Source: an uncultured Lachnospiraceae bacterium (GTDB lineage Bacteria > Bacillota > Clostridia > Lachnospirales > Lachnospiraceae). From it: DNA of 64,000 nucleotides. Of the stretch, positions 1 to 46,801 are shown piece after piece. The notes under the pieces were generated by a model. That model made no database searches. It worked only from the letters and a program-made list of their open reading frames with translations, and was not told where the DNA came from. The stretch's first letter is position 1, and every line of letters starts with the position of its first letter. The position numbers were made by a program, and so were the translations under genes. Location of the stretch: contig CASYOT010000002.1 in the NCBI GenBank assembly GCA_949484645.1, positions 2,912 to 66,911 on the forward strand. Reading direction: 5' to 3'.

Positions 1-2
1 AC

Positions 3-9989: not shown

Positions 9990-9994
9990 CAAAA

Positions 9995-12673: not shown

Positions 12674-12711
12674 TGATTCTAAAGATATATTTATAAAATG
12701 GAGGGTAAGAA

Positions 12712-14352
12712 ATGAAGATTTTGTTGGTGGTTCCGCAATACTATAGCCGGAAAGAACGATATTATCAAATGCCATTAGGCTTAGCGTATGTGAATGCAGC
12801 TCTGCGGGAAGCAAATTTAGATGTGCAATGCCTGAATATGAACCATATTGAAGCAGAAGACGCCTATTCAGTTTTAGCTGAACGGGTAGTAAATTCCAAT
12901 ATTGACGTTGTCCTTTGCGGCGGAATAAGCCCGCTTTGGAAAACGATTGAAAAAGTGTTTGATACAGTTAAAAGGGCAAAAGCTTCCATAATTACTGTGG
13001 GGGGGGGTGGAGCCTTTACGTCGGAGCCTCTTATTTCAGCGGAACTTCTTGAAGTAGATTATGCTGTAATTGGAGAAGGGGAGATTACAGATGTAGAGCT
13101 TATTCAAACGTTGATGGCGAATCAGAATGTAAGCAATGTAAAAGGAATTGTATATAAAACGCCGGACGGATATAGGCAGACGGCTCCGAGGGAAGAAATT
13201 GCCGATGTGGATTCCATTCCATTTCCATGCTATGAGGGGTTTGACATGGATTTATATTTAGAAAATCAAATGGTGAGCGATGAATATTATTCTTTTTATT
13301 CGGACAAGCCGAGAATTATGCCGATGATTTTAGGCAGGTCATGCCCTTATCAATGCAAATTTTGTTTTCACCCTATAGGAAATAAATACAGGGTGCGAAG
13401 TCTGGATAATTTTTTTATGGAACTGGATCAATGGAAGAATAAGTATGCTCCAACCTGTATTTTGATATTAGATGAATTATTTAGCGCAAGCGTTGAAAGA
13501 GTGTATGAGTTTTGTGAAAGAATAAAAGGATATGAGATAAAATGGATTGTCCAAATGCGGGTGGATATTATCACGAAAGAGTTATTGCAGACAATGCGGG
13601 ACGCCGGATGCCTCAGCATCAGTTATGGACTTGAAAGTTTTAGCCCTGCAGTTTTGAAAAATATGAGAAAACATATCTCTTTAGCAGACATAGAAAACGC
13701 TTTAAAATTGACTTATGAAGCAAAAATAGACATTCAGGGCAATTTTATTTTTGGAGACGAGTTAGAAAATGAGCATACGATATATGAAACATTGCGGTTT
13801 TGGTTTCAGCATCCAGAATATAAAATTAATTTGGGGTGGATAGAGACATATCCGGGATGCGGCTATTATCAGGAATTATCAAAAAATTGGAGCGTTGAGG
13901 AGAAAAAAGCATTTTTAGAAATGAGTGAATGGCTGACAAATTTAACAAAGATGCCAGATGAAGAATATGGGAAATATAAAGTTGTGATTCAACTGCTTAC
14001 ATTTTATTATAACCCAGATTGTGTGAAAGAAAAAGAGACGCGGACAGACGAAAATGGCGATGGGATTATTGAAGCGAAGTGCGTGCATTGCGGTTCGGTA
14101 AATCGGTGGGCAGGAGTTAAAAAATATCTGCTAAATCAATCGTATTTTAAATTATGCTGCCGGAAATGCAATCATAGGAATGTGATTTACAGCAGGAAAG
14201 AAAGGTTAAAAAATTGGGATTTAATTCTGCCATTATGTGAGAAAATGGCTTTGGCAACAAAGGAAGATGAATTTATTAAAGCGGTAAACGCTTTATATGA
14301 GACGTATATGGTGACGCATGACCCAGAAAATCCATTTCCTGTTTTGTTTTAG
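12712..14352 (+). CDS. B12-binding (class B) radical SAM enzyme, putative sugar C-methyltransferase or related
   Basis: N-terminal B12-binding-like region (MKILLVVPQYY...PLGLAYVNAAL) followed by CPYQCKFC radical SAM motif; 546 aa; contains an in-frame G9 tract at 12999..13007. Confidence 0.75.
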   Translation: MKILLVVPQYYSRKERYYQMPLGLAYVNAALREANLDVQCLNMNHIEAEDAYSVLAERVVNSNIDVVLCGGISPLWKTIEKVFDTVKRAKASIITVGGGGAFTSEPLISAELLEVDYAVIGEGEITDVELIQTLMANQNVSNVKGIVYKTPDGYRQTAPREEIADVDSIPFPCYEGFDMDLYLENQMVSDEYYSFYSDKPRIMPMILGRSCPYQCKFCFHPIGNKYRVRSLDNFFMELDQWKNKYAPTCILILDELFSASVERVYEFCERIKGYEIKWIVQMRVDIITKELLQTMRDAGCLSISYGLESFSPAVLKNMRKHISLADIENALKLTYEAKIDIQGNFIFGDELENEHTIYETLRFWFQHPEYKINLGWIETYPGCGYYQELSKNWSVEEKKAFLEMSEWLTNLTKMPDEEYGKYKVVIQLLTFYYNPDCVKEKETRTDENGDGIIEAKCVHCGSVNRWAGVKKYLLNQSYFKLCCRKCNHRNVIYSRKERLKNWDLILPLCEKMALATKEDEFIKAVNALYETYMVTHDPENPFPVLF

Positions 14353-14369
14353 GAAAAGGATTTCCGCCA

Positions 14370-15068
14370 TTAAATTGTGACATTAAAGTATTGTTGGGCC
14401 TTACAGTATTTTTTCTGCCTGTTTCTGATTAAGACACTGCCGTCAGGGTTACGCAGCACAACGGAATCATCGGAGACCGGCTGTCCATATACAAACGCAT
14501 CTACTCCAATGGATACACGGTTTCCGATTGGTTCATTGCCTATAATTTTAGCTCCGGCGGCTAAGTAGAGCCCTTTTCCGAGTTTTGGGACAGTTTCGCC
14601 GACAGGGCTTTCACCGGTATTGATGGTGACATTTTGGCCTATTACAAGAAAATCACTGTAAGCTGCATTGCCAATTACGCTTCCTACCGGATGTGTAAGG
14701 AAGAATATTTCCGGCAGTTTGCCTTTGTAAGAGATAAAAAAACTATGTAAAGTTTTATTCAAGTAAATTAATTTGTCACAGACAGATTTGTTTGCGGAAA
14801 GCTCCCACAGTGAGTTAGCCCAAAAATATAAAAACTGGGCATACTGGTCAGAATGCAGATGCGAGAAAAATGTTTCGCCTTGGTTATCTGAATATGCGGA
14901 ATTTTTAATAAAACGGAAGCAATGCTCTGTCCGTTCTAAGGCGCGTTCAAAAGCGGCGTCAACGTCGCTGCCTTTTAGAGTATGAGTATTGCGATCCGGA
15001 AAAAAAAGCTCTAACTGATGCAGCGTATATGTTTGAAGTTCTTGTTTCGGTAATGATAGGTTCATTTC
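14370..15068 (-). CDS. hexapeptide-repeat (left-handed beta-helix) acetyltransferase, serine-acetyltransferase-like
   Basis: C-terminal LbH repeats (VIGQNVTINTG...AGAKIIGNEPIGNRVSIGVDAFV) preceded by a helical N-domain as in CysE-like O-acetyltransferases; start set to the internal MNLSL with GGAAG RBS (track start 15182). Confidence 0.65.
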   Translation of the reverse strand, partial: EMNLSLPKQELQTYTLHQLELFFPDRNTHTLKGSDVDAAFERALERTEHCFRFIKNSAYSDNQGETFFSHLHSDQYAQFLYFWANSLWELSANKSVCDKLIYLNKTLHSFFISYKGKLPEIFFLTHPVGSVIGNAAYSDFLVIGQNVTINTGESPVGETVPKLGKGLYLAAGAKIIGNEPIGNRVSIGVDAFVYGQPVSDDSVVLRNPDGSVLIRNRQKKYCKAQQYFNVTI

Positions 15069-16033
15069 TTCTTCCTTTTTTGAATATAAATTGGCTCTAA
15101 AATAAAACGTGGGAGAATTGCGTATGGCCATACATGGAACCATATCGTAGGATATTTGTATGTATTTAAAAATAATATCCATTTATCGTCCATATCATAC
15201 TGATTATCCTCTACGCTGTATTTTAGGATAGAATCTTTAATAAATCCTTTCATGTCAGTAAGAAAGATTTTTTTCATCTGGCTTTTTGGAAAACCGGCTT
15301 TTACGGCTGTTTGGAGCAAAAGTCTTTTATATTGCTTTACCCAGACTTCAAATAAATTAAATCCGCCGCTGTTATTATTTTTTGCGGCTAAATAGGGGGC
15401 TTTTGTCAGGATCATTTTAGTATTTTTGCCTGAGAGAATGTGAAATACGATATGCGCGTGTAGAAAATGGGTTCCAAAATATTTCTCAGGATGCTTTATT
15501 TGTTTAAATTTGCTCATTTTCAGAACGGTTGCAGATATATACGTTACATAAACGCCAATGTAATTCATCAGAAGGGTTTTATCGTAAGTAATCAGATCGT
15601 TTGTTTCCCTAAGTTTTATTCTTGGCGCTTTTCTAATGTCCGGATTGAATGTCTGTGTTGAATATGTAAAAGAATTTATATTAATATAGGCTGGTCTTTC
15701 TGTTTTTATCAGATATAATATTTTTTTTATCGCTCCGGGCAGCAATATGTCATCGTCCGAGAGAAACTGTATATATTCGCCGTTCGCTTTTTGGAAACAG
15801 TTAAAAAAATTTTTATCCATACCCAAATTTTTTGAATTACGATAATAACGTATCTTATGTTCTTTGCAATATTTTTTCATTACTTTTGGGGTCTCGTCTG
15901 TGGAAGCGTTATCTGATACAAGGATTTCAACGCCGTCTTCCAACTGCCCTAGCGCGCTTTCTAATGACTGGCATAATAAATGACAGCGGTTATAGGTAGG
16001 GATAGCGACTGTCAGTATAATTTTTTGTCCCAT
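15062..16033 (-). CDS. family 2 glycosyltransferase (GT-A fold)
   Basis: IPTYNRCHLLCQSLESALGQ...VSDNASTDET...DDD motifs typical of GT2; start set to MGQKIIL with RBS (track start 16138 overlaps the upstream gene). Confidence 0.8.
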   Translation of the reverse strand: MGQKIILTVAIPTYNRCHLLCQSLESALGQLEDGVEILVSDNASTDETPKVMKKYCKEHKIRYYRNSKNLGMDKNFFNCFQKANGEYIQFLSDDDILLPGAIKKILYLIKTERPAYININSFTYSTQTFNPDIRKAPRIKLRETNDLITYDKTLLMNYIGVYVTYISATVLKMSKFKQIKHPEKYFGTHFLHAHIVFHILSGKNTKMILTKAPYLAAKNNNSGGFNLFEVWVKQYKRLLLQTAVKAGFPKSQMKKIFLTDMKGFIKDSILKYSVEDNQYDMDDKWILFLNTYKYPTIWFHVWPYAILPRFILEPIYIQKRKKK

Positions 16034-16037
16034 GATC

Positions 16038-16970
16038 TTACCTCTTTCTTTTGGTTTCATAATACTGGATTGTTTTTTGGATGCCTTCTTCAAAGGGAAT
16101 TTCAGGCTTCCAGCCGGTATCTCTTGTAAGAGGTTCAATATTGATACAAGAACTTGGCATTATGCCGGGGGAGCTGATTTTTCTTTCGGGAGGGGGAGTT
16201 TTTTCTCCAATGCCTAAAGGAAGCGATGGGTTTATCATGTCCCGAATAGTTAAGACGTATTCCCGAAGTGTTTTGTGCGTTCCGCTTCCTATTCCATATG
16301 TAATATTATGCCTGCCTTTCTCTCCAATTTTAATAATTGCTTTTGCTACATCTGATACATAGACAAAATCCCAATTAGACTGGAGATTGCCATAGACAGG
16401 GTATTTGCCATCTAAAAGAGTGGTAATCGTATAAGTCAGGATATTGTCTTCTGTTCTTCCTTCCCCATATGTGCTTGGAAGAACAGTCCAAATCATATCC
16501 TGCCCTAATTGCGCGGCAACGGCTTCTAACAGATAGTGGACGGAAGTTTTTGTGGCTCCATAGATGTCAATGGGCGTCTGTTTCCTTGAAAAATCAATGA
16601 CGCATACATTATAAACATATTCTGCCACTGTGCCTGCGGCCAGAAATAGTTTGCATTTTAAATATTTAGAGAGACGTAACATATCCAGAGAAGTTTCGAT
16701 ATTGCTTAATTGCAAAGGAATGTTGTTTTTTTCTTTCCCAGAAACGCCTGCCCAGCCAAGATGATAAAATATATCATATGTTTTTCCAGACAGCCTTTGC
16801 GCCAGTTCTTTAAATTGATAGCCGGCAGTTATTGTTTTTACGGAAGAATTATGAAATGGCATAGAGGAGGGGGAGGAGGTCAGGACGGTTACGTTAGCGC
16901 CTGATTTTAATAATTCCGCAACAACATATCTGCCGATAAATCCGGTTCCTCCTGTAAGAATGGCTTTCAT
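16038..16970 (-). CDS. NAD-dependent epimerase/dehydratase family (SDR) sugar reductase/epimerase
   Basis: MKAILTGGTGFIGRYVVAELL Rossmann motif; YGATK catalytic YxxxK; 310 aa. Confidence 0.75.
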   Translation of the reverse strand: MKAILTGGTGFIGRYVVAELLKSGANVTVLTSSPSSMPFHNSSVKTITAGYQFKELAQRLSGKTYDIFYHLGWAGVSGKEKNNIPLQLSNIETSLDMLRLSKYLKCKLFLAAGTVAEYVYNVCVIDFSRKQTPIDIYGATKTSVHYLLEAVAAQLGQDMIWTVLPSTYGEGRTEDNILTYTITTLLDGKYPVYGNLQSNWDFVYVSDVAKAIIKIGEKGRHNITYGIGSGTHKTLREYVLTIRDMINPSLPLGIGEKTPPPERKISSPGIMPSSCINIEPLTRDTGWKPEIPFEEGIQKTIQYYETKRKR

Positions 16971-16980
16971 ATTCTTCCTC

Positions 16981-17994
16981 CTACTGTTCCATGCGTTTTA
17001 GAATGATGTCTGCATAGCTGTCTATATCGTCGGTTGTATTCGCCGACAGGCTTTCGCAATGTCTGCAGATTGGTATATCGTCTTTCCTCTTTTTTAAGTG
17101 GAGTTTTTGGTACTGGCAAAGTTTTTCGCCATTCCAAATATCCGCAATTTTTTCGGTTTTTAAATCGCCTAAAATATATTCTGTTTTCCAGTCTACACAG
17201 CACAGATGCGCAATGCCGGAATGGTTTATTACCATCGTAGTAAATAAAAATGGGCAGACTTCTTTTGGTTGTAGCTCCTGGCCGTAAGTGCCTTTATGGG
17301 CGTTGTTTATTTTTGCGCCGATATTTGTGTCCTGCCAAAGGGTGGAAGAAATGGTTTCTACAAATATTTCGTCAGACACTTTTTCAAATGTCTGGTAAAA
17401 ATTCTGTTTTTCTGTTTCGGTATAACCAATATCGCTGTATTTAATAAAGATTTTACAATTCTGTTTATTTTTATAGAAAAACTCGATTTTTTTATAGAAA
17501 TCCTGAAAGTCCATTTCGTATTGGCATACGTCTTTGTACTGTTGTTCATTAATTCCATTTACTGAAATATTTAATATGTCAAGACCTGCCTCAATAAGCT
17601 CAAGGCTGAGCGTTTCGTTTAGAAGCGTGCCGTTGGTCGTGATTTCAATACATTCTGCGGCCTCTGCTTTTTTGGCATAGGCTGCCATTTGGGCAATCTT
17701 GGGATTCATCAAGGGCTCTCCGATTTTAAACAGCCTTAATTTTTTGATTTTTTGTCTGCCCCAGCAAGAGACAATGTCGTCTATGATTTTTTGGAAAAGT
17801 TCCAAAGACATTGCGCCAAATGTTACATTAGATTTTTTTATGGTTTCCATGTCTGAGTGGAAACAAAAATTGCATTTTAAATTACAGGCGCTGCATACGT
17901 CAATTTGAATTGCAAAGGGCGCGGAAAGCGGCAGAACTTCCTGTAACGGGGTTCTTTCCCTTGCGTAAATTTTGGCTCTTCTTATTGCGCTCAT
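16981..17994 (-). CDS. radical SAM enzyme with C-terminal SPASM/twitch-like Cys cluster
   Basis: CNLKCNFC motif near N-terminus; C-terminal CPFLFTTMVINHSGIAHLCCVDW...C cysteine cluster; GGAGGT RBS; paralogous to 29444..30469. Confidence 0.75.
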   Translation of the reverse strand: MSAIRRAKIYARERTPLQEVLPLSAPFAIQIDVCSACNLKCNFCFHSDMETIKKSNVTFGAMSLELFQKIIDDIVSCWGRQKIKKLRLFKIGEPLMNPKIAQMAAYAKKAEAAECIEITTNGTLLNETLSLELIEAGLDILNISVNGINEQQYKDVCQYEMDFQDFYKKIEFFYKNKQNCKIFIKYSDIGYTETEKQNFYQTFEKVSDEIFVETISSTLWQDTNIGAKINNAHKGTYGQELQPKEVCPFLFTTMVINHSGIAHLCCVDWKTEYILGDLKTEKIADIWNGEKLCQYQKLHLKKRKDDIPICRHCESLSANTTDDIDSYADIILKRMEQ

Positions 17995-18020
17995 CGTTGT
18001 ACCTCCGTGTGGTCTGCTTT

Positions 18021-19805
18021 TTAAGGCAGCATAAGTTTTTTTATTTCATCTTCTTCTAAGAAAGGATACATATCATGTAAAGCGGGAGTTTTCATTTTGC
18101 CGTTTTCATCTATGCGTGACATGACTTTTGGAATAACAGGATCGTCAAATGCCTGCAATACTTCCAGTATCATATGCTTTGTTGTCTGCATAAAAGCATG
18201 TAAGCAGGAATCCACTTCGCCATTATTATGGCAGCAAAGATATTTAAACCCGAATGTGTCTGCAATTTTTTTAAAATCAGGGAAACTTACTCCGGTATCC
18301 GGCGTACAGCCAATGTATTCTCCTTGAAAGAAGTTTTTTGAAGTCTGCCGGATTGCCCCATAACCTTCATTTGAAAAGATAACGATTGAAATTGGAAGAT
18401 CGTACTGGGCAATCGTTTGAAGTTCTTGTAGGTTCATCATTATGCTTCCGTTTCCTGTAATGCAGTATACGCCGGATTTGGAGGAGATGGCGGCGCCTAT
18501 GGCCGCGGGAATATCGTATCCCATAGATCCGCAAGTATAATTTGTAAGAATCCGTTGGTTTCTCTTTTGGGTTCCAATTTGTAATTTTGCAGTATTTGCG
18601 CTGTTGTTGCCAAGCGCTAAAATGCTGTTATCCGGTTCATGTGAATGGAACTGTTTCCAAAAATAGTAGGAAGAAACCCTGTCTGACAAATGAACGCCAT
18701 GCCGGATTGCTTCATATGGAGAAAAGCGTTCTTTTAGGTTTTGGCAGTAGGAAAGCCATTCTTTATGCGGCATACAGGGGATGACGCTCTGTCTGGCAGT
18801 TTCAAAAAACTGATTTAGGTCTATATGGAGGCTCTTTTGGATTTTAAGCCCCGGTTTTAGGGCTTCGTTTTTGTCAGCGTCTATCATATAGATTTTTGCA
18901 TTTGGGGCGAAGCCGTCTTGGTTAAACCCTGTCTGCCGGAATCCCAAACTATTTCCTAAAGTTAAGATTGCATCTGCGTTTTGCAAAATAAAATTTCCGG
19001 ATCTTGATCCCACATTTCCGGAGGAGCCGAAATAAAGGGGATGCTCCATATAGAGGTTATCGGCTACCCATGCGCCTCCAATTACAGGGAGCCGCATAGA
19101 ATCAATAAAACTTAAAAACGCTTCCATACAGTTTCCGCTTCTAATGCCGGAGCCTGCAAGGATGCAAGGGCGTTTTGCAGACTGGAATTGTTGCAGAACA
19201 GATTCTATATCTTCTTTGGGAAGATGAGGGAGGGCGCTTTGATATTCTTCCGGTTCATATAATTCGCTTTCTTCGATATTTGCGCTCTGGATATCCTGTG
19301 GGACGTCTAACCAAACGGGTCCCCGCCTTCCGTCCATAGCGATATGAATTGCTTTAACCAATTCTCTCTTTACGGCGTATGGATTAGTCAGCATTGTGGC
19401 ATATTTAGTCATATTTTGAACAGATGGGATAATTTCAAATTCTTGCAAGCCACGATAACGTAAAGGAAGGCCTGATTTTGGGACGGAAATTTCATAACGG
19501 ACTTGTCCAGACAACACAATCATGGGCAGACTGTCCTGCCATGCTCCCATCACGCCTGTTATGGCGTTGGTGGAACCGGGGCCAGAGGTGACGCAGACCG
19601 CCGCCATTTTTCCGCTGTATCTTGCATAGGCTTCTGCCGCCATGGCGCACGCCTGTTCGTGGTGGTTAAAGTATTTATTCATTTTCGGACATTTTAGCAA
19701 AGCGTTGTCTAAAAACATCGCGCCTCCGCCAACGACAGCAAAACAGTCTATAATTCCGTATTCTGTCAGTGTGTCCATAATGATGTCAGCCACTCGTTTT
19801 AACAT
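18021..19805 (-). CDS. ThDP-dependent acetolactate-synthase-like enzyme (YerE-like two-carbon branching enzyme candidate)
   Basis: 594 aa with ALS/POX family architecture; ThDP-binding GDG...N-type region in the C-terminal third (CITGNGSIMMNLQEL); N-terminal VGGGAMFL...VCVTSGPGSTNAITG; GGAGGGG RBS. Confidence 0.75.
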   Translation of the reverse strand: MLKRVADIIMDTLTEYGIIDCFAVVGGGAMFLDNALLKCPKMNKYFNHHEQACAMAAEAYARYSGKMAAVCVTSGPGSTNAITGVMGAWQDSLPMIVLSGQVRYEISVPKSGLPLRYRGLQEFEIIPSVQNMTKYATMLTNPYAVKRELVKAIHIAMDGRRGPVWLDVPQDIQSANIEESELYEPEEYQSALPHLPKEDIESVLQQFQSAKRPCILAGSGIRSGNCMEAFLSFIDSMRLPVIGGAWVADNLYMEHPLYFGSSGNVGSRSGNFILQNADAILTLGNSLGFRQTGFNQDGFAPNAKIYMIDADKNEALKPGLKIQKSLHIDLNQFFETARQSVIPCMPHKEWLSYCQNLKERFSPYEAIRHGVHLSDRVSSYYFWKQFHSHEPDNSILALGNNSANTAKLQIGTQKRNQRILTNYTCGSMGYDIPAAIGAAISSKSGVYCITGNGSIMMNLQELQTIAQYDLPISIVIFSNEGYGAIRQTSKNFFQGEYIGCTPDTGVSFPDFKKIADTFGFKYLCCHNNGEVDSCLHAFMQTTKHMILEVLQAFDDPVIPKVMSRIDENGKMKTPALHDMYPFLEEDEIKKLMLP

Positions 19806-19897
19806 CTTAACGCCCCTCCAAATTTAGCTTTCGATAATTCATAACATAATTTTATATTGTTATATGGGAATTGTAAATATATATTTCTGAAAATTGT

Positions 19898-20785
19898 TTA
19901 ATAGAGTAACTGGAATAAATCTATTTCATCTTCATGTTCCAAATACCATTGATATAACTGGCGGACGGAATCTTCTATAGGCGTATATTCAAAACCGGTA
20001 AGTTCTTCCATTAAACGGGCGTTTGAAGCGGTATATTCTTTTGCCAGCCCTTCTTTACAAATGTAAATGGGGAGCTCTTTTCCGCTGATTTTTAGGACAA
20101 GGCGGCAGAGCTTTTCTAAACTGATTTTCTTTCCCGAGACGGCGTTATAGGTATGGCGGGTTGGGGCGTGATGCAAAAAATATTCTATGATCCGGCAAAA
20201 GTCTTCTACCCAGATGTAATCGAAATACACATTCTGCCGTATAGATAACGGCAGGTTTTTTATCGCTTTACAGCAGATATTTGAAATGAACTTCACGGGA
20301 TAATATTCATATTTCCCGAATATTCCGAAAAGCCGGAAGTTATAAACGTTGTCTGATTTTTCAATTAATTCCCCTATTGTATATTTCATCAAACCGTATT
20401 GGTCAGTCGGAAGGCTTTTGCCTAAATCTGTTTCCGCTACATTGGCAATGTCGAACCGTTTGTCATATTCTGCGCCTGAGCCAGAATAATACATCCTGCC
20501 AAAGAGATGGGAATTTTTATAGAAATTAAAAAAGATCCGCATATTATATTCAAATATTTTCGAACCGTCTTTCGATTTGTCTATGCTGTCGCCATATGAG
20601 GCAAAATGGAGGATGTAATCAAATCTGTGGGCTTTTAAATATTGTAATGTTTCCGTTTCTTCTATGCAGTTTAGCTCTTTGCTTGACGGAGTGTATATAT
20701 CATAATTACGGTCGTTTTTCTGGAGATATTCTTTTACGTTTCTGCCAACAAAACCGCTGGCTCCGGTAATTAATATTTTTGGCAT
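19898..20785 (-). CDS. short NAD(P)-dependent epimerase/reductase (SDR, RmlD/GDP-fucose-synthase-like size)
   Basis: MPKILITGASGFVGRNV Rossmann motif; 295 aa; paralog of 24661..25542 (shared ISNCCCKAIK...YFDY.W.EDFCRI segments). Confidence 0.7.
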   Translation of the reverse strand: MPKILITGASGFVGRNVKEYLQKNDRNYDIYTPSSKELNCIEETETLQYLKAHRFDYILHFASYGDSIDKSKDGSKIFEYNMRIFFNFYKNSHLFGRMYYSGSGAEYDKRFDIANVAETDLGKSLPTDQYGLMKYTIGELIEKSDNVYNFRLFGIFGKYEYYPVKFISNICCKAIKNLPLSIRQNVYFDYIWVEDFCRIIEYFLHHAPTRHTYNAVSGKKISLEKLCRLVLKISGKELPIYICKEGLAKEYTASNARLMEELTGFEYTPIEDSVRQLYQWYLEHEDEIDLFQLLY

Positions 20786-20955
20786 AATGTCCTCTTTTCC
20801 GAATATACAATTTTAGTTACATTTAGGGGGATGCAGCAATTAAAAAACCCTAATACTATATCGGCAATTTTTGGGGAAACATGAGAAGCGGTTGTTACGG
20901 AAAAGTTATATTTGTCCGATATAAAAATAAAGTATGGGAAAGGATGAGGGGGAAA

Positions 20956-22938: not shown

Positions 22939-24654
22939 ATGGGAAATAGAATATTAGATTATGCTTGTGAACAGTTTGAGAGCCGTAATTATTGTGAAGC
23001 GTTGGAAGCGTTTGTTTTAGCTTATATGAAAGGTTATGAGCCGGAATGGGTGATTGAAAACATTTATAATTGTTATGTGGCTTGTAATGAGCCGGAATTT
23101 CGCAATGCTTATGGAAAGTGTGGGGCAGAGGTAAGCTATGAGGATTGCGTGTTGGACTTTATGCCTTATAAAGAAGGGGAATATTATATTTTTGATAAAG
23201 AGCGAAAGCAATTTATTGGAAAGTTCTTAGTTTCAGAACTAAAGATGGTTTCATCAGAGGAAGCATTAAATGAAATCGAGTTTGGCGCGGTGGCGGAAGC
23301 GTTCCATTGGAATCTGAAGGAAGAATATCAACTGCTTGCGGCGGCAAAAGACAAGAAAGTGTATGCAGTCTGCCATGAAATCAATTATATTTCTTCCTTT
23401 TATAAAATACCGGAGTTAGAAGAATATAATAAAAATGTGAAATTGTTTCAGGATTTCAGTCAGTTTCAGCAATATTTCCATAAAAATACGGGAGTTTATC
23501 TGCCCCGGATTTTGTCAGGGGATTTAGAGAGTGTAAAAGAATTAAATGAAATAGTTGAAGCGGAACATCAATTTAGATTAACTCCGGAGGGACGCAATAC
23601 AGATCACGTATTGCTTACGATTGGGATACCTTCACGGAATAGAGGGAATCTTTTGTTAAAACGGCTGGAAAATCTGCGGAACATAAAACTGGATGCGGAA
23701 ATTGAAATTGCAATTTCGAAAAACGGCGTGGATTTCTATCAGGAAGAATATGATCAAGTGAATCAGGCGCAGGATTCCAGAATTTGTTATTATGATCATC
23801 ATAAGGATTTGGTGGCGCCTGAGAATTGGCATTTTGTGGTAGAAATGGCGCATGGGAAGTTTGTATTGCTGGTTTCGGATGAAGATGACATTATTTTAGA
23901 TTCTTTAGGGCATTATCTAAAGCTGATAACGGAGTATCCGCAAGCGAGTGTGATAAGGGCAAAGTCCTGCATATTTTATTCACGTTTATCGGAAAGATTG
24001 TATGCGGAAGGGACGGATGCATTAAAAAAAGGATTTTTGAAGCAAAATTATTTGTCAGGGTTGATTTTTAACAGGGAAAAGTTTCTAAAGCAAAATTTGC
24101 TGCGGTTAGAAAAATTCCGGGAAGATAATTTATATTATTGCCTGTATCCGCATGAGTGGTGGTGCGCCATTTTGTCAAAAAACGGCGTTTATATGGAAGA
24201 ACCGTTTTTGTTGGTTCAGGAACGTGAGTCTGTGATTCAGGAAGAAAACTCAAAATATATTGAAAAAGGAGTGATAGAAGAAGGAGAGCATATTGCAAAG
24301 GGAACAAGTCTGCCGGCGTATTCCACATATGAAAGCCGCTTACAGCAGTTTTTGGGCATGATGGAATTTGTGCGTTGGATTGCAGATGGGGATAAGGAGC
24401 TTGCTTTTTTTTGCGTTGCAAGTTGTATAAGTAAAATTTTATTTCTATTGCTGCTGGCAAGGGAGAGGGGGTATGAAGTCTCAAACTTTATGAATATAGT
24501 TGATAAATTTTGCAAAATGTCTATTGAAGCAATCCGTGAGTTTGATTTTTCTGAGGAACAGCAAGTGAAGTTATTATCAATATTAAAAACAAGCGCAATA
24601 GAAACATATGGGCAAGAGAGGGAGATTTTTGAAAAAGAACAGAATGCAGGATAG
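22939..24654 (+). CDS. large GT2-domain protein (paralog 2 of 20956..22641)
   Basis: Aligns with paralog 1 over its whole length (EALEAFVL..M..Y...I.NIY.CY......F...YG.C; GIP..NRGNL; LLVSDED; HEWW); AAGGGGATGAAGGG RBS. Confidence 0.55.
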   Translation: MGNRILDYACEQFESRNYCEALEAFVLAYMKGYEPEWVIENIYNCYVACNEPEFRNAYGKCGAEVSYEDCVLDFMPYKEGEYYIFDKERKQFIGKFLVSELKMVSSEEALNEIEFGAVAEAFHWNLKEEYQLLAAAKDKKVYAVCHEINYISSFYKIPELEEYNKNVKLFQDFSQFQQYFHKNTGVYLPRILSGDLESVKELNEIVEAEHQFRLTPEGRNTDHVLLTIGIPSRNRGNLLLKRLENLRNIKLDAEIEIAISKNGVDFYQEEYDQVNQAQDSRICYYDHHKDLVAPENWHFVVEMAHGKFVLLVSDEDDIILDSLGHYLKLITEYPQASVIRAKSCIFYSRLSERLYAEGTDALKKGFLKQNYLSGLIFNREKFLKQNLLRLEKFREDNLYYCLYPHEWWCAILSKNGVYMEEPFLLVQERESVIQEENSKYIEKGVIEEGEHIAKGTSLPAYSTYESRLQQFLGMMEFVRWIADGDKELAFFCVASCISKILFLLLLARERGYEVSNFMNIVDKFCKMSIEAIREFDFSEEQQVKLLSILKTSAIETYGQEREIFEKEQNAG

Positions 24655-24660
24655 GAAGAT

Positions 24661-25542
24661 ATGAAAACGATATTAATTTTAGGATCAACCGGATTTATAG
24701 GGAGAAATTTAAAGGAATGGTTTGAGAAAAAGAAACAGTACACAGTTTTATGTCCTAATCGCAAAGAACTGGATTTGCTCGATGAAAATATGGCAGATTC
24801 CTTTTTGGCGGCGCATAAAATAGATGTGGTTTTTAATTGCGCAATATTTTCTCCAAAGTCGGAAATGGAAGAATTGGAAGTGATTGAAAAGGATTTGCGT
24901 ATGTTTCTGAACCTTGAAAAAAATAAAGATAAATTTGGCAAAATGTTTTATTTTGGCTCTGGGGCGGAATATGATAAGACAAAGCCTATTGTACAAGTGA
25001 AAGAGACGGATATTGGGAAAAGCATTCCGAAAAGCAGATATGGCATGGTAAAATATGTAATTGGACAAATGATAGATGGATCGGATAATATCTATAATAT
25101 ACGGATATGGGGTCTGTTTGGGAAGTATGAAGACTGGTGGACGACATTTATATCGAATTGCTGTTGTAAAGCAATTAAGGATTACCCAATTTCCATTCGA
25201 AAAGACACGTATTTTGATTATCTTTGGATAGAGGATTTTTGCAGAATTGCCGAATGGGCAGTTGGACATGAATTTGAGAGCCATACATACCATGCAGGGA
25301 GCGGACGGCGTATCTTACTGTCAGAAATTGCAAAAATAGTAAGGGACGTCAGCGGCAGGGAATTAGACATTGTTATTTGCAATGAGGGGTTGGGCAATGA
25401 ATATACGGCGGACAGCTCACGTCTGATGAAGGAATATGGAAAAGACTATGTTACCCCTATGGAAACGGCAATCAGGGAATTGTATACATGGTATGAAACG
25501 CATCCGGAAATTATCAGTATGCAGAAATTAATATATGGTTAA
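24661..25542 (+). CDS. short NAD(P)-dependent epimerase/reductase (SDR), paralog of 19898..20785
   Basis: MKTILILGSTGFIGRNLKEW Rossmann motif; 293 aa; conserved blocks shared with the minus-strand paralog. Confidence 0.7.
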   Translation: MKTILILGSTGFIGRNLKEWFEKKKQYTVLCPNRKELDLLDENMADSFLAAHKIDVVFNCAIFSPKSEMEELEVIEKDLRMFLNLEKNKDKFGKMFYFGSGAEYDKTKPIVQVKETDIGKSIPKSRYGMVKYVIGQMIDGSDNIYNIRIWGLFGKYEDWWTTFISNCCCKAIKDYPISIRKDTYFDYLWIEDFCRIAEWAVGHEFESHTYHAGSGRRILLSEIAKIVRDVSGRELDIVICNEGLGNEYTADSSRLMKEYGKDYVTPMETAIRELYTWYETHPEIISMQKLIYG

Positions 25543-25570
25543 AACTTTTAGAGATTGAGAGGAATTTAAA

Positions 25571-26572
25571 ATGAACGATATTTTTGAAAACAAGTCAGTG
25601 CTGATTACCGGAGGGACGGGTTCTTTGGGAAAGTATTTTACAAGATACATTCTGACGCATTTTAATCCGCATCGGGTAGTGATATTTTCGCGTGATGAAT
25701 ATAAACAGAGCATGATGAAACAGGAATTTGCGCAGTATGGGGATAAGCTGAGATTTTTTATCGGTGACGTGAGGGATAAAGACAGGCTTCTAAGGGCGTT
25801 CGACAGAGTGCAGATTGTAATTCATGCAGCAGCGATTAAACAGGTGCCGACTTGTGAATATAACCCGATAGAGGCTATTAGGACGAATATTAATGGGGCG
25901 ATGAATGTCATTGACGCCGCGATTGACCGGAAGGTGGAGTGTGTTGTGGCGTTGTCAACGGACAAAGCGGTGAACCCGGTAAACTTATATGGCGGAACAA
26001 AATTAGTTTCGGACAAGCTTTTTGTGGCGGCGAATGCCTATGCAAAAATTTCAGGGACAAAATTTAGCGTTGTCCGGTATGGAAATGTGGCGGGCAGCAG
26101 GGGAAGCGTGATCCCGTTTTTTGAGAAACTTATGGCGGAAGGAAAGACAACGCTTCCGGTGACGGACGTGCGCATGACGCGGTTTTGGATTGATTTGGAG
26201 CAAGGGGTTAAATTAATTTTAAAAGCTTTATATACGGCTGTTGGCGGCGAAGTTTTCGTTTCTAAAATACCTTCTTTTAAAGTGACGGATTTGGTAAAAG
26301 CCATGAATCCGGATGGTTCCATTGAGGAAGTCGGTATCCGTGAAGGGGAAAAGCTGCATGAAGTAATGATTACAGATGTAGATTCAAGAAGGACGGTTGA
26401 ATTAGGGGACTGTTATGTGATTATGCCGGAATTTTCATGGTATAAGCCAAATGAAGAAATAAAAGCGGGGAAAAAGCTTCCAGATGAATTTGTTTATAGT
26501 TCAGATAAAAATACGAGCTGGCTTTCTGTGGAACAGCTTCAGGAAAAATTAAAATTATATCGAAAGAAATAG
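25571..26572 (+). CDS. pseB: UDP-N-acetylglucosamine 4,6-dehydratase (inverting), PseB/FlaA1/CapD family
   Basis: VLITGGTGSLGKYFTRYIL...HPHRVVIFSRDEYKQ...FFIGDVRD signature of the PseB/FlaA1 polysaccharide-biosynthesis family; 333 aa. Confidence 0.85.
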   Translation: MNDIFENKSVLITGGTGSLGKYFTRYILTHFNPHRVVIFSRDEYKQSMMKQEFAQYGDKLRFFIGDVRDKDRLLRAFDRVQIVIHAAAIKQVPTCEYNPIEAIRTNINGAMNVIDAAIDRKVECVVALSTDKAVNPVNLYGGTKLVSDKLFVAANAYAKISGTKFSVVRYGNVAGSRGSVIPFFEKLMAEGKTTLPVTDVRMTRFWIDLEQGVKLILKALYTAVGGEVFVSKIPSFKVTDLVKAMNPDGSIEEVGIREGEKLHEVMITDVDSRRTVELGDCYVIMPEFSWYKPNEEIKAGKKLPDEFVYSSDKNTSWLSVEQLQEKLKLYRKK

Positions 26573-26582
26573 AGGGATTCAT

Positions 26583-28040
26583 TTGGAACGGTTTGAATTA
26601 ACGGAAAAAACTAAACTATGGATTTACGGGGCAGCTTTTGGAGGGACGCTCTTATATGAAAAACTGCATAAGAATCATTATCAGGTGGAAGGGTTTATAG
26701 ATAAAAGGGCAGAGGAAATAGAGAGTTTATGCGGGCTTTCCGTCTATAGCGTAAAACAAGCCAAAGAACGTATGGGACGTGGGCAGCTAACAGTCATTAT
26801 TTCAGTGAAAAATGTGTTTGAACATAGCGGCATTGCCAGAGAGTTAATAAAAAATGGAATTACAAACATCATTTATAAGCCATATGCGGCTCTGAAAGGA
26901 TTTGCAGACGAATCAGCAAAAGAAATGTTTGAGCTTCATAATCAGTTGATTGATTGCGGCTTTTGTAAGGGCGGCAGGTTTTGCAGGGCGGACGAAATAG
27001 AAAAGAATTGGGAAATCCCAAAAGAATATCTGCTGGCCAAAGATTCCAAAATGCAGACAGTTTTTCTGCCTCTGCCTATGCTGTTTGAAAACCAAAGCGT
27101 TACGGGCGGATATAAGGAACGGAATGTTTGTTTTTTATATCCGCACATACAATTCTTCCGGTATCTTCAAGGAGAAGCCGGCGCTTCCTGCCAGCGCTAT
27201 CTGGAGTATTGTGAGATGGCAGTGGAAGAATTGGATTCTTTTCAAGTTACGGAAGCGTGGAAAGAAAATGTGATCCGAAACAGGGCAGATGTGTTTTACC
27301 AGATGAACCATGCGTTTTTGTTCCAGAAAGATTTTTTTGTCAGAAATTCGCCAGAGGCGGAATGGAATGAGGACGGATACTTTAACTTGAAAAGCGGGAA
27401 GCACAGAGCGGCATTTTTTGCCGCCCGCCGTCAGATGTATATTCCCGTAAAGATCACTCATTCGGATGCAGAAAAATGGATTTCTGAGGATAGGGCAAAT
27501 GAGGTGAAAAAAGAGCTTTTACAACAGGGCGTATTTGAATTAAAAGCTCCGGTTGAGCATCCATTTTTTTATCAGATGCCATGTACGGCAGAGAATTTTT
27601 TCTATGGCGTATGCTGTGCGTTGGCAGATGAACTCGGCGGGTTGTATTATCAAACGCCAATGGATCATGTACTGAAAGGCAAAAAGATATATTTGAATGT
27701 AGATGATTATGGGTTTGTCAGCCGTTTTTTCAGGAGAAGCGGGGCTATGGCATACGATGCCGATGAGAGGGACCGGAAATTGAAAGAAGCGTTAGAAAGG
27801 TTGTTTTCGCTTCGTTTTGGGAGGCTTGTCGCCGCTCAGGAACATTACGACTTGGCGGTGTTCAAAACAGACTGCCCGCAAAATTTGAAGCAATGTCTGG
27901 AAACTATTTTTGCGGATCATTATTTTATCCTTGCCCCAGAGAGTATTTTGTTGGAAACTGAGCGGATAAAAAGAGTTTATTGCGGGGCTGCGTGGGGAAA
28001 AAGCATGGTTTTGTGGCATTTGGAGAAATGTAATGTTTGA
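26583..28040 (+). CDS. uncharacterised protein family member 1 (PglD_N-like Rossmann N-domain + central DGHHR-type motif)
   Basis: TTG start after AGAGGGA RBS; N-domain KLWIYGAAFGGTLLYEKL...VEGFIDKRAEEI; central YFNLKSGKHRAAFFAARRQMYIPVKI; paralogs at 28033 and 30528. Confidence 0.5.
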   Translation: MERFELTEKTKLWIYGAAFGGTLLYEKLHKNHYQVEGFIDKRAEEIESLCGLSVYSVKQAKERMGRGQLTVIISVKNVFEHSGIARELIKNGITNIIYKPYAALKGFADESAKEMFELHNQLIDCGFCKGGRFCRADEIEKNWEIPKEYLLAKDSKMQTVFLPLPMLFENQSVTGGYKERNVCFLYPHIQFFRYLQGEAGASCQRYLEYCEMAVEELDSFQVTEAWKENVIRNRADVFYQMNHAFLFQKDFFVRNSPEAEWNEDGYFNLKSGKHRAAFFAARRQMYIPVKITHSDAEKWISEDRANEVKKELLQQGVFELKAPVEHPFFYQMPCTAENFFYGVCCALADELGGLYYQTPMDHVLKGKKIYLNVDDYGFVSRFFRRSGAMAYDADERDRKLKEALERLFSLRFGRLVAAQEHYDLAVFKTDCPQNLKQCLETIFADHYFILAPESILLETERIKRVYCGAAWGKSMVLWHLEKCNV

Positions 28041-30469: not shown

Positions 30470-30527
30470 CGAGAAGAAATTTAGTTTTCAAGATGCAGAA
30501 GAAGTTTATATATATGGCGCATCTTAT

Positions 30528-44908: not shown

Positions 44909-44953
44909 CCCAAGGTTAGTTTTATGCACAATACATAAAAGGAGGGCTGAAAA

Positions 44954-46785: not shown

Positions 46786-46801
46786 AAAGGATAGGGGTAT
46801 T

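Follow-up and report, generated by a model that had tools for sequence, protein, structure and literature searches.

A six-gene operon in a flagellin glycosylation island of a gut Lachnospiraceae bacterium, probably for the synthesis and transfer of a carbon-branched sugar

Gram-positive bacteria reportedly install sugar branches by means of a pyruvate-dehydrogenase-like E1. The work on paulomycin biosynthesis contrasts Gram-positive branch installation with that by the single ThDP enzyme YerE, and describes the formation of a C-4 acetyl branch, its stereospecific ketoreduction and the subsequent O-acylation of the new hydroxyl, with the branch ketoreductase Pau7 and the 7'-O-acyltransferase Pau6 as the enzymes of the last two steps in paulomycose tailoring (PMC4753412). 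Branch formation followed by ketoreduction is also the scheme of YerE/YerF, from the yersiniose A pathway of Yersinia pseudotuberculosis (PMC9306805, PMC12247030). Together with ErwE/ErwF, MMAR_2332, PpYerE and JanthE, YerE/YerF constitute the described systems closest to the locus reported here, and the established acceptor, CDP-4-keto-3,6-dideoxyglucose, holds for all characterised YerE-like enzymes (PMC12247030; also PMC9306805). For the radical-SAM part of the locus the closest known systems are BtrN (butirosin), DesII, BlsE and AprD4/AprD3, all of which act on sugar carbinol carbons.

The window, a stretch of 64,000 nucleotides, was found to carry a block of six minus-strand genes (Table 1). 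The sequence-only reading had described six co-directional genes for an SDR, a ThDP enzyme, a radical-SAM/SPASM protein, a second SDR, a GT2 and a hexapeptide acetyltransferase, and both the gene array and the domain calls were borne out, by the ORFs and by domain searches respectively. The block shares with the YerE/YerF group a three-domain enzyme of the ThDP decarboxylase superfamily. An SDR, presumably NAD(P)H-dependent and a candidate for the YerF role, lies beside the gene of this enzyme, RfbF/G/H are encoded in the same island and stand next to the block in close relatives, and the arrangement would fit the published scheme of branching and then reduction (PMC9306805, PMC12247030). The block differs in that it is found in the flagellin glycosylation island of a Gram-positive anaerobe and not in an LPS context, in that its ThDP enzyme belongs to a separate clade travelling with an SDR1-family SDR and often with a Twitch radical-SAM gene and Leg genes, in the GNG that replaces GDG, and in that the window yielded no recognisable E3/AscD-type reductase to partner RfbH.

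Table 1 Features of the window discussed in the text. Promoter, hairpin and functional assignments are predictions.
Feature	Position	Strand	Basis or remark
Flagellin gene, 3' end	1..168	+	Flagellin_C, E 8e-18; marks the locus as a flagellin glycosylation island
Maf (MptE-like) motility-accessory-factor gene	763..2685	+	Marker of flagellin glycosylation islands
AU-rich inverted repeat/hairpin, about 13 bp	14328..14365		Spans stop codon of plus-strand B12-radical-SAM gene and the 17-nt gap
Six-gene block	14370-20785	-	ORFs all co-directional, all open
Serine-acetyltransferase/WcaB-like hexapeptide acetyltransferase, 231 aa	14370..15065	-	Start moved from 15182
Soluble GT2 glycosyltransferase, 323 aa	15062..16033	-	Start moved from 16138
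SDR2, extended SDR, 310 aa	16038..16970	-	Domain search
Radical SAM (rSAM) with SPASM/Twitch, BtrN-type auxiliary-cluster domain	16981..17994	-	Domain search and cysteine spacing
YerE-like ThDP-dependent carboligase, 594 aa, N/M/C domains	18021..19805	-	Pfam TPP_enzyme_N/M/C
Possible internal sigma-70-like promoter, TTTACA-17-TAAAAT	19849..19877	-	Consensus match only, in SDR1/ThDP gap
SDR1, extended SDR, 295 aa, YxxxK present	19898..20785	-	Domain search
Predicted sigma-28/sigma-D-like promoter, TCATGTTT-N11-GCCGATAT	20858..20884	-	73 nt 5' of SDR1 start codon
GT2-like protein u586, about 560 aa	20956..22641	+	Divergent from the block and outside it
Paralogous second branching module	22939..36845	+	
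GT2-like, 571 aa, second module	22939-24654	+	
SDR293, second module	24661-25542	+	
PseB, second module	25571-26572	+	
rSAM_D, second module	29444-30469	+	
ThDP2, second module	34126-35937	+	
Aldo-keto reductase, second module	35913-36845	+	After ThDP2
RfbF1, RfbG, RfbF2, RfbH	44129..48145	+	CDP-4-keto-3,6-dideoxyhexose pathway, about 23 kb from the block

The longest ORFs overshoot the starts of the GT2 and acetyltransferase genes, which were placed at 16033 and 15065 by homologue alignments and an independent gene call. After this correction the intergenic distances, from SDR1 to the acetyltransferase, are 92, 26, 10, 4 and -4 nt, the last being an ATGA overlap of the GT2 stop and the acetyltransferase start, and ribosome-binding sites accompany the 26, 10, 4 and -4 nt junctions. 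Translational coupling, earlier proposed for all six genes, thus remains plausible at the final three or four junctions but not at SDR1/ThDP, where the 92-nt gap holds its own ribosome-binding site and a sigma-70-like site. The acetyltransferase, of the left-handed-beta-helix type, had no Pfam match, and its matches to CysE/EpsC/WcaB (E about 1e-11) and to serine acetyltransferases in the PDB (E 1e-7) are weak; its homologues, at 46-80% identity, go with the ThDP clade of the block in 10/34 loci.

The best solved relatives of the ThDP protein are JanthE (8rph, E 1e-99) and PpYerE (5ahk, E 7e-72), which precede every acetolactate synthase (ALS). Full-length alignment gave 338 bits with JanthE and 246 bits with PpYerE against 201 bits with the best ALS structure, and the best score against the NCBIfam ALS models, 302 bits, is far under their cut-offs of 538-1084. 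The catalytic glutamate is present, that of HHEQA aligning with its counterparts in JanthE and PpYerE. The protein is nearer to these two than to any ALS, in agreement with its initial description as YerE-like, and its clade is distinct from the canonical YerE clade, with about 40% identity between the two.

The canonical ThDP/Mg motif is GDG-X24-27-NN, and at this place the window allele reads GNG...SN (D452N); the same allele carries D141N. The Asp of GDG is kept in 37/39 other clade homologues outside the lineage, the remaining two being unmatched by the motif pattern, and GDG also stands in the major allele of the species, which falls in the same 90% cluster (415 contigs). Reportedly, the D440N substitution abolishes cofactor binding in Zymomonas PDC, and D428N is said to weaken it greatly in E. 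coli AHAS II. With the Mg-binding Asp changed to Asn here and kept elsewhere, the branching step may be weak or dead in the window strain. The operon could thus be partly decayed in this lineage, with D452N crippling or inactivating branching and leaving only downstream tailoring or transfer, or nothing; such decay, compatible with the explanation preferred below, is possible but doubtful. The GNG allele is full-length and intact and has become fixed across a widespread sublineage (94 contigs), other members of which also read GNG, all six ORFs are open, Mg ligation by Asn could still occur, and JanthE is active with a non-canonical CDG motif in which the first Gly varies and the Asp is kept (PMC12188165).

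The rSAM protein has its CX3CX2C motif at C37/C41/C44, and the invariant C247, C265, C310 and C313 are spaced as the cysteines of BtrN. These four residues are predicted to bind a single auxiliary 4Fe-4S cluster in a truncated SPASM fold, as in Twitch domains. Two extended SDRs flank the ThDP-rSAM pair. The SDR1 family is adjacent to the ThDP clade of the block in 30/34 loci, and in environmental loci its genes come immediately downstream of rSAM_C homologues. Look-ups anchored on the rSAM, and so independent of the ThDP gene, disclosed a ThDP gene in each of the contexts recovered (4/4), one of which was from a deltaproteobacterial symbiont, and in 8/10 metagenome contigs of at least 10 kb with an rSAM homologue of at least 31% identity; among the rSAM-anchored loci, an SDR1-family SDR was the next recognisable gene in about 18 and RfbF/G/H in 9. 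Relatives of SDR2, at 31-32% identity, directly follow canonical YerE-clade genes in the rfbFGH clusters of Firmicutes. The SDR2 family holds the YerF position in these canonical clusters. The SDR1 family goes with the rSAM; canonical clusters carry other SDRs, and orthology of SDR1 to YerF is not demonstrable.

The main interest of the locus lies in this trio of ThDP enzyme, Twitch rSAM and SDR1, which is uncharacterised and recurs across phyla (marine and freshwater bacteria, the deltaproteobacterial symbiont and gut Lachnospiraceae). It is proposed tentatively, at somewhat less than even confidence, that the trio defines an uncharacterised radical step in the biosynthesis of a branched sugar. 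This step could consist in the oxidation of a carbinol of the branched nucleotide sugar, or in an elimination there, with a reduction to follow. If so, an abundant human gut commensal would bear a new carbon-branched sugar on its flagellin; in a more extreme version of the same proposal, a diverted Leg pathway would give a C-branched nonulosonic acid. A general logic of rSAM and ThDP enzymes for anaerobic sugar branching is hinted at by the island as a whole, which contains two YerE-like ThDP enzymes, a split transketolase, four Twitch/SPASM rSAMs and one B12-rSAM, each of its three ThDP C-C-forming systems sharing its gene array with at least one Twitch/SPASM rSAM.

A 55-kb flagellin O-glycosylation island, which extends from the flagellin gene to an FMN riboswitch and the rib operon, includes the block as one of its operons. 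The host, an abundant gut Lachnospiraceae, is labelled 'Eubacterium sp.' at NCBI. PseB, PseC, PseG, PseI, LegB, LegC, NeuB, NeuC and NeuD all score above the NCBIfam cut-offs and a PseF-like gene scores just under (191.6 vs 205.7); CBS-nucleotidyltransferase genes are also present, and the Leg and Pse gene sets are complete. The flagellin islands of Campylobacter and of Clostridium botulinum/difficile, among others, likewise combine a flagellin gene, Maf and complete Pse/Leg sets with all-soluble enzymes and a hypervariable mosaic content, but in the island of the window C-C bond-forming and radical enzymes are unusually numerous, and a search of the collection of papers at hand found no flagellin glycan or pathway of this kind. 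The SDR1-ThDP-rSAM module has a conserved partner glycosyltransferase in the divergently transcribed u586, homologues of which adjoin the module in loci L011, L003, L085 and L094.

That the block serves a cell-surface polysaccharide (capsule, EPS or a teichoic-acid-like polymer) and not flagellin is highly improbable, even though characterised YerE-like enzymes work in LPS O-antigen biosynthesis (PMC12247030) and a GT2 with WcaB/EpsC-like acetyltransferases is typical of EPS loci. The island opens with the flagellin gene and Maf, homologous modules adjoin flagellin, FliD and FliS genes in L085-L090, and the promoter predicted for the block is sigma-28-like. Moreover, no flippase, polymerase, ABC exporter or priming phosphoglycosyltransferase was found in the 55 kb, and a hydropathy scan, a crude method, gave no multi-TM protein among the 49 genes from Maf onward.

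The sequence-only reading had further taken the block for a self-contained cassette. The domain calls give no nucleotidyltransferase, 4,6-dehydratase or 3-dehydrase within it; it cannot be called self-contained, since the activation of the sugar and the formation of its 4-keto group fall to genes outside the block, namely the rfb genes of Table 1 and the Leg and Pse genes. These would provide two near-equally likely acceptor sources, CDP-4-keto-3,6-dideoxyhexose from RfbF/G/H and 4-keto-6-deoxy-HexNAc from the Leg/Pse genes. In L011 and L030, the two nearest relatives of the block over its full length, the rfb genes abut it, and RfbF/G/H are found within 10 kb in 16/34 loci of its ThDP clade and in 36/46 loci of the canonical clade. 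The ThDP paralogue of the second module belongs to the latter, tightly rfbFGH-linked clade (36/46); on this linkage, the CDP-sugar may feed the paralogue instead of the enzyme of the block.

It was also considered whether SDR1-ThDP(-rSAM) intercepts the 4-keto-6-deoxy-HexNAc of LegB/PseB, so that the product would be a C-branched HexNAc, or a C7-branched nonulosonic acid once NeuC/NeuB have acted, in place of a yersiniose-like 3,6-dideoxyhexose. Within 10 kb, NeuB accompanies 27/34 loci of the ThDP clade, compared with 10/34 for RfbH, the clade being found inside Leg-type nonulosonate operons more often than beside rfbFGH. The order SDR1, CBS-nucleotidyltransferase, ThDP is common in loci of this clade and continues with NeuD, NeuB, NeuC and LegB in L002, L004-L009, L030 and L088-L090; L004, L005 and L007 have no DegT-type aminotransferase within 10 kb, and the completeness of the Leg and Pse sets in the window points the same way. 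However, flagellin islands carry Leg genes anyway, so that their co-occurrence is weakly specific, and two formyltransferases and a de-N-acetylase in L004 imply that amino groups are still made. The contiguity of the rfb genes in the two closest relatives, the company of rfbFGH kept by distant rSAM/ThDP/SDR trios and the acceptor shared by all characterised YerE-like enzymes also weigh against the HexNAc substrate, which is on balance unlikely.

The best explanation, held with moderate confidence, is that this operon of the flagellin island tailors a nucleotide-activated 4-ketosugar supplied from elsewhere in the island, its six genes probably building, tailoring, transferring and acetylating a carbon-branched sugar. 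The gist of the function first assigned, namely YerE-like two-carbon branching, reduction, transfer and acetylation of a branched deoxysugar, is retained, without the self-contained and foreign character then attached to it. We infer the following scheme from sequence, including the substrates, the order of the steps and the division of roles between the SDRs. The acceptor would be CDP-4-keto-3,6-dideoxyhexose (RfbF/G/H, 44-48 kb) or GDP/UDP-4-keto-6-deoxy-HexNAc (LegB or PseB). The ThDP enzyme would decarboxylate a 2-keto acid, probably pyruvate, and add the acyl anion to the sugar ketone, giving a C-acyl (C2) branch on a tertiary alcohol; one SDR would reduce the carbonyl of the branch in a YerF-like manner. 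The BtrN-like Twitch rSAM could then abstract a carbinol hydrogen, with oxidation of the sugar or elimination of a substituent, and the second SDR would reduce the resulting ketone, for a net epimerisation or deoxygenation. Transfer to the flagellin glycan would be due to the soluble GT2 and/or the divergent GT2-like protein of 560 aa, and acetylation to the SAT-like acetyltransferase. The paulomycin pathway has a common logic with the block, which includes reductases and an acetyltransferase (SDR1-ThDP-AcT sets in 10/34 loci), but Pau7 is an aldo-keto reductase and Pau6 an acyltransferase of a different family. It is the ThDP gene of the second module, not that of the block, that is followed by an aldo-keto reductase gene.

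As for base composition, the block was said to be visibly more AT-rich than the genes around it. Its GC content is 39.6% (0.396), against 0.395 for 5449-14352 and 0.406 for 20881-36845, and it is indistinguishable from its immediate neighbours gene by gene both in GC (0.393 vs 0.402, Mann-Whitney p = 0.66) and in GC3 (0.395 vs 0.392, p = 0.85). The statement holds when the block is set against the pse/rfb/leg genes at 37-55 kb (GC 0.430, p about 0.02) or against the rib/bio genes (GC 0.487, p = 0.001); the entire left 37 kb of the island is, however, low in GC, all its other genes also falling below these two sets. The RSCU distance of the block is 0.53 vs 0.37, and it reaches 0.59-0.63 in the three other minus-strand genes of the window (2766-4887). 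This deviation arises from a replication-strand skew that swaps C and G at third positions (C.25 and G.15 in the block, C.13 and G.26 in plus-strand genes), and it is not a mark of foreign origin.

Synteny leads to the same result. Another Lachnospiraceae lineage, L011, has this block in the same setting, with u586 and the B12-radical-SAM gene on either side; there, block and flanks fall in one range of identity, 70-88%, with no discordance specific to the block. Exact-match look-ups, which reach near-identical strains only, found the block on 23/23 contigs for each flanking protein, and the single apparent variant is an assembly gap. Block proteins occur on about 500-570 contigs, a prevalence comparable to that of the RibBA and BioD of the species (about 400-700). 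No tRNA gene was found at the block as an insertion signature, its boundary repeats are short and at chance level, and neither the block nor the adjacent operon on either side encodes an integrase or transposase domain. The horizontal acquisition suggested for the block at the outset finds no support in these data. A scan of GTDB species representatives gave no block homologue above 84% identity, so that the block may be missing from the genome that represents the species, or that genome may be incomplete.

A recently acquired, AT-rich, self-contained cassette that alone makes, reduces, transfers and O-acetylates a branched deoxysugar is accordingly very unlikely, and on the two points named by the sequence-only reading itself, a GC difference and absence from relatives, it is largely refuted. 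The lower GC than in the pse/rfb/leg and rib/bio genes, an RSCU profile unlike that of the plus-strand neighbours, the mosaic nature of glycosylation islands across Lachnospiraceae with the module in differing contexts, and the species-representative scan speak in its favour. They are outweighed by the flank-like composition, the strand effect common to other minus-strand genes, the conserved context in L011 and on the 23/23 contigs, the housekeeping-level prevalence, the lack of tRNAs, repeats and mobility genes, and the sugar activation and keto-forming genes missing from the block. Recent insertion is rejected in favour of an old block, strand-equilibrated and near-core, within a mosaic island. 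Neither more AT-rich than its neighbours nor self-contained, and without foreign signs, the block amounts to a fairly ordinary, though uncharacterised, operon for glycan tailoring.

The block is probably transcribed, as a late flagellar operon, from the sigma-D/sigma-28-type promoter predicted upstream of SDR1. This site departs at three positions from the sigma-28 consensus, and such matches are modestly enriched (4 observed vs 1.3 expected). The window holds 13 GCCGATAW sites; three are intergenic (intergenic DNA being 7.4%), and all three are correctly oriented, each ahead of the first gene of an operon. Promoter-like sites in the SDR1/ThDP region showed no enrichment over shuffles. At the other end of the block, the gap to the convergent plus-strand operon is exactly 17 nt (14353-14369, GAAAAGGATTTCCGCCA), as noted initially, and a scan of it gave no canonical intrinsic terminator, likewise in line with the first description. 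The hairpin that spans this gap has no U-tail or U-tract; its 101-nt minus-strand fold has z = -4.2.

The best description of the minus-strand block at 14370-20785 is a variant YerE/YerF branching cassette inside a flagellin glycosylation island, set apart from YerE/YerF by a conserved radical SAM partner of the Twitch type. Minus-strand open reading frames fill this interval with six co-directional genes, and the domain calls of an earlier sequence-only reading were upheld by Pfam and NCBIfam; for the acetyltransferase AcT the database matches were weak only. The start of AcT was corrected, as nine of ten homologues begin aligning at Met40 of the long ORF, and that of GT2 was corrected likewise, its homologue alignments beginning at about Met36; both corrected starts agree with those called independently on an identical metagenome contig. 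Intervals between successive genes are 92, 26, 10, 4 and -4 nt, and Shine-Dalgarno sequences are present. The arrangement is operon-like and is predicted to be a real operon. Translational coupling, proposed earlier for the whole set, is credible at the distal junctions and is not plausible at the SDR1/ThDP gap, which has its own ribosome-binding site and a sigma-70-like hexamer pair.

Positions of the block genes and of other features of the island
Feature	Position	Strand	Description
SDR1	19898-20785	-	extended SDR; first in transcription order
ThDP	18021-19805	-	ThDP enzyme with N, M and C domains; second
rSAM_C	16981-17994	-	radical SAM with SPASM/Twitch; third
SDR2	16038-16970	-	extended SDR; fourth
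GT2	15062-16033	-	GT2 glycosyltransferase, 323 aa; fifth
AcT	14370-15065	-	serine-acetyltransferase/WcaB-like beta-helix acetyltransferase, 231 aa; last
Hairpin	14328-14365		AU-rich, about 13 bp
u586	20956-22641	+	GT2-like, about 560 aa, outside the block
Flagellin 3' end	1-168		Flagellin_C, frame +3
Heptose set	2766-14352		GmhA, GmhB, GMD-like dehydratase, HldE-like protein; range also takes in the split transketolase, its rSAM/SPASM genes and the B12-rSAM gene
rSAM/SPASM gene	7127-8188		left of split transketolase
Split transketolase	8239-9989		between two rSAM/SPASM genes
rSAM/SPASM gene	9995-11104		right of split transketolase
Second module	22939-36845	+	branching module paralogous to the block
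Three related proteins	26583-31757	+	485, 476 and 409 aa
ThDP2	34126-35937	+	paralogue of ThDP
Aldo-keto reductase	35913-36845	+	directly after ThDP2
Methyltransferase pair	37023-38266	+	DVU_1556 family, 173 and 231 aa
rfb set	44129-48145		RfbF, RfbG, RfbF, RfbH
Cytidylyltransferase 1	44129-44908	+	glucose-1-phosphate cytidylyltransferase
Cytidylyltransferase 2	46012-46785	+	glucose-1-phosphate cytidylyltransferase
FMN riboswitch	55963-56124	+	82 bits, ahead of rib operon

What lies at the SDR1/ThDP junction varies among loci. In the window it is an empty 92-nt gap (19806-19897), in the homologous locus of another Lachnospiraceae lineage, L011, it holds a 555-aa ORF without a Pfam match (8295-9959), and in most other relatives (L002, L004-L009 and L030) a CBS-domain nucleotidyltransferase. 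At the other end the block converges on the plus-strand B12-dependent radical SAM gene (B12-rSAM) with the 17-nt gap described earlier. No canonical terminator was predicted at this junction, as had also been noted; the AU-rich hairpin spans the stop codon of the plus-strand gene. In L011, AcT and the B12-rSAM homologue are separated by a further four genes, namely a methyltransferase, a radical SAM protein of 513 aa and two unknowns.

Over its full length the ThDP protein aligns with two YerE-like enzymes, JanthE (8rph, 338 bits) and PpYerE (5ahk, 246 bits), which outrank all acetolactate synthases among its matches. Assignment of the gene as an acetolactate synthase (ALS/IlvB) was rejected, since it scores far under every ALS family cut-off, its best relatives are YerE-like and its context is one of sugar genes. 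In the YerE-like reaction a 2-keto acid supplies an acyl anion that, bound to ThDP, is added to the CDP-4-keto-3,6-dideoxyglucose ketone, and the branch is then reduced by a neighbouring reductase, YerF or ErwF (PMC12247030, PMC9306805). SDR2-like genes occupy the YerF position in canonical clusters of Firmicutes. The enzymology put forward from the sequence was guessed correctly in its gist, a predicted YerE-like branching step with reduction, transfer and acetylation of a deoxysugar. At the Mg-binding GDG motif the allele in the window has Asn in place of Asp (D452N, giving GNG; codon 452 is AAC, 18450-18452), and it has D141N as well. GDG is found in the major conspecific allele and in 37/39 other clade homologues, the remaining two being unmatched by the motif pattern. 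Within the same 90% cluster the GDG allele accounts for 415 contigs versus 94 for the window allele, which is fixed in a sublineage; the D452N protein may bind its cofactor poorly and may be a natural attenuated or inactive variant.

The four invariant C-terminal cysteines of rSAM_C (C247, C265, C310 and C313) have the spacing of the BtrN cysteines and align to BtrN positions 187, 232 and 235, and by extrapolation 169, the ligands of the auxiliary cluster in BtrN. Unlike a full SPASM domain, rSAM_C has no CX5CX3C element. With this pattern rSAM_C is a Twitch enzyme, of the type that abstracts hydrogen from sugar carbinol carbons. A role as a RiPP maturase was rejected on the basis of the single BtrN-type auxiliary site, of the sugar radical SAM enzymes as top structural neighbours, and of SDR, ThDP and rfb neighbours across phyla. 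Searches anchored on rSAM_C alone found a ThDP gene in 4/4 contexts looked up and in 8/10 metagenome contigs (at least 10 kb, rSAM identity at least 31%). The four contexts include flagellin-adjacent loci of mouse and human gut Lachnospiraceae and a deltaproteobacterial symbiont of Olavius, whose locus also holds RfbH/G/F-like genes, an HpcH aldolase and a C-methyltransferase. The next recognisable gene was of the SDR1 family at about 18 of the rSAM-anchored loci, and RfbF/G/H were present at 9. The conserved core therefore consists of ThDP, the Twitch rSAM and an SDR1-family SDR, and SDR2, GT2 and AcT are accessories to it. The divergent GT2-like gene u586 accompanies the core in four lineages and may be the protein that actually performs the transfer. 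Split transketolases are the partners of more distant rSAM homologues (L123 and L126), as they are of the pair of rSAM/SPASM genes in the window; the recurrence of the transketolase-rSAM-transketolase order in metagenome loci suggests a general pairing of radical SAM and ThDP enzymes in sugar branching.

The block was described earlier as self-contained. This could not be maintained, because the RfbF/G/H genes of the keto-sugar pathway lie outside it in the window and abut it in its two closest relatives with all six genes. In L011 (70-87% identity) RfbH, RfbF, RfbG, RfbF and u586 are divergent from SDR1, and relative to this locus the window carries about 21 kb inserted between u586 and the rfb genes; in L030 (59-71% identity) RfbF and RfbH come after the acetyltransferase. 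The clades of the two ThDP proteins of the window were compared over 80 genome loci, counting features within 10 kb; ThDP2, 42% identical to ThDP, belongs to the canonical clade (46 loci), the other 34 loci forming the block's clade. RfbF/G/H were present at 36/46 canonical loci and at 16/34 of the block's clade. An SDR1-family SDR (30/34, adjacent), NeuB (27/34), a Twitch rSAM (10/34) and an AcT homologue (10/34) were each found in the block's clade and at 0/46 canonical loci. A frequent order in the block's clade is SDR1, CBS-nucleotidyltransferase, ThDP, then NeuD, NeuB, NeuC and LegB, and with this Leg-type order the acceptor could equally be the product of LegB or PseB. A CDP-dideoxyhexose and a 4-keto-6-deoxy-HexNAc are thus roughly comparable as candidate acceptors. 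The proposal that ThDP and SDR1 replace the LegC aminotransferase, which arose from the lack of a DegT gene in L004, L005 and L007, is weakened by the formyltransferases and de-N-acetylase of L004, as these imply amino sugars.

The surroundings of the block are those of a flagellin glycosylation island. Translated directly, the window start gives a flagellin C-terminus (E 8e-18), the gene of an MptE-like Maf protein comes after the flagellin 3' end, and the following 55 kb encode soluble proteins only, up to the FMN riboswitch and the rib operon as right border. The spacer before the riboswitch (55.4-56 kb) has a low GC content (33%), the riboswitch marking the right edge of a low-GC island. 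Besides the heptose, rfb and B12-rSAM genes the island holds a pseudaminic set (PseB/C/G/I) and a Leg set (NeuD, NeuB, NeuC, a PseF-like gene, CBS-nucleotidyltransferase, LegB and LegC). A sequence TCATGTTT-N11-GCCGATAT at 20858-20884 (-), 73 nt upstream of SDR1, resembles the sigma-28/sigma-D consensus. Closer matches are TAAAGTTT-N11-TCCGATAT at 232-258 (+), after the flagellin gene and before Maf, and TAAAGTTA-N12-GCCGATAA at 5051-5078 (+), before the u542/TIGR04372 glycosyltransferase operon; a bare GCCGATAT -10 element, its -35 match unassessed, lies at 51680-51687 (+) in the gap before the CBS-nucleotidyltransferase, LegB and LegC genes. Exact GCCGATAW occurs in the intergenic DNA (7.4%) at three sites, 5071, 20858 and 51680, all pointing into operon starts. 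These promoter-like sites fit a prediction of the block as a late flagellar operon, and the island may be a set of such operons.

Several further features of the island were recorded. The HldE-like protein is domain-swapped, with the cytidylyltransferase N-terminal and the PfkB kinase C-terminal. The second module contains a GT2-like 571-aa protein (41% identity to u586), SDR293 (46% to SDR1), rSAM_D (29% to rSAM_C) and ThDP2, which is of the canonical YerE clade; the adjacent aldo-keto reductase recalls the AKR Pau7 of paulomycin, which reduces an acetyl branch. The three mutually related proteins, 23-28% identical and located between PseB and a methyltransferase, gave no Pfam or NCBIfam match, and proteins homologous to them turn up again close to the ThDP module in L009, L019 and L034. 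In the pair of adjacent methyltransferase ORFs, 71% identical, the first resembles a tandem copy that has been truncated. The two cytidylyltransferase paralogues, 42% identical, flank the CDP-glucose 4,6-dehydratase gene, the first falling slightly short of the equivalog score threshold. Nowhere in the window was an E3 (AscD/RfbI) reductase recognised that could partner RfbH.

The block had been taken as more AT-rich than its neighbours. Its GC content (0.396) is indeed below that of the pse/rfb/leg genes at 37-55 kb (0.430, p about 0.02) and of the rib/bio genes (0.487, p = 0.001), but this is common to everything in 1-37 kb, and the block equals its immediate surroundings (left operon 0.395; 16 kb to the right 0.406), per-gene GC and GC3 not differing from other genes of the island's left part (p = 0.66 and 0.85). 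In codon usage the block does differ (RSCU rms 0.53, against 0.37 for plus-strand genes of the island), and the other minus-strand genes (2766-4887) do so to the same extent (0.59-0.63), so that the difference is a strand artefact and was discarded as a test of foreign origin. Its source is an exchange between C and G at third codon positions (C.25 and G.15 in the block; C.13 and G.26 in plus-strand genes). GC skew is very strong and uniform in the window, about +0.3 on the plus strand, which is G-rich whatever the gene direction; at third positions plus-strand genes are rich in G and minus-strand genes in C. Apart from the block, only the genes at 2766-4887 lie on the lagging strand (head-on) in these 64 kb. 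The composition of the block has therefore come into equilibrium with the lagging strand, which argues against its recent inversion or import. Strong replication-strand skew can thus make a minus-strand operon look foreign by codon usage without being so.

In L011 the same inverted block lies between u586 and the B12-rSAM homologue, with overlapping block and flank identities, and for each of the two flanks all contigs read with the exact flanking protein (23/23) have the block. L083, which seemed to be a natural variant without SDR1 and with a shortened AcT, is 99.9% identical and contains an N-run and two indels, and was dismissed as an assembly artefact. The block proteins occur on about as many contigs as the species' RibBA and BioD. 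Exact matches to window proteins occur in hundreds of metagenome contigs, with NCBI names from a 'Eubacterium sp.' MAG; a scan of one representative genome per species gave no match above 84% identity, so that the comparison covered contigs rather than complete conspecific genomes. No tRNAs were found, and no meaningful repeats at the block boundaries. The island is mosaic between genera, yet nothing marks the block as a recent import; it is not demonstrably foreign, and the earlier finding fails as evidence for horizontal acquisition or for a self-contained cassette.

The trio of ThDP, rSAM and SDR is a better lead than the cassette as first claimed. From the locus, a Lachnospiraceae flagellin is predicted to bear a sugar that is carbon-branched and has tertiary-alcohol chemistry. 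Lachnospiraceae flagellins are major antigens of the human gut and TLR5 ligands, and to our knowledge their glycans are essentially unmapped; searches of the literature gave nothing specific tying YerE, yersiniose, branched-chain sugars or radical SAM enzymes to flagellin. The conserved partnership of a ThDP carboligase and a Twitch rSAM is absent from every characterised YerE pathway, and offers a tractable way into new radical sugar chemistry and into new carboligases for chiral tertiary alcohols. Last, a minimal module of SDR1, ThDP, rSAM and a 560-aa glycosyltransferase was found directly after flagellin genes in Lachnospiraceae of mouse and human gut (L085-L087), followed by a sulfatase-family transferase, choline kinase, LicC-like nucleotidyltransferase and BCCT transporter, a gene set that suggests phosphocholine decoration of the flagellin glycan.
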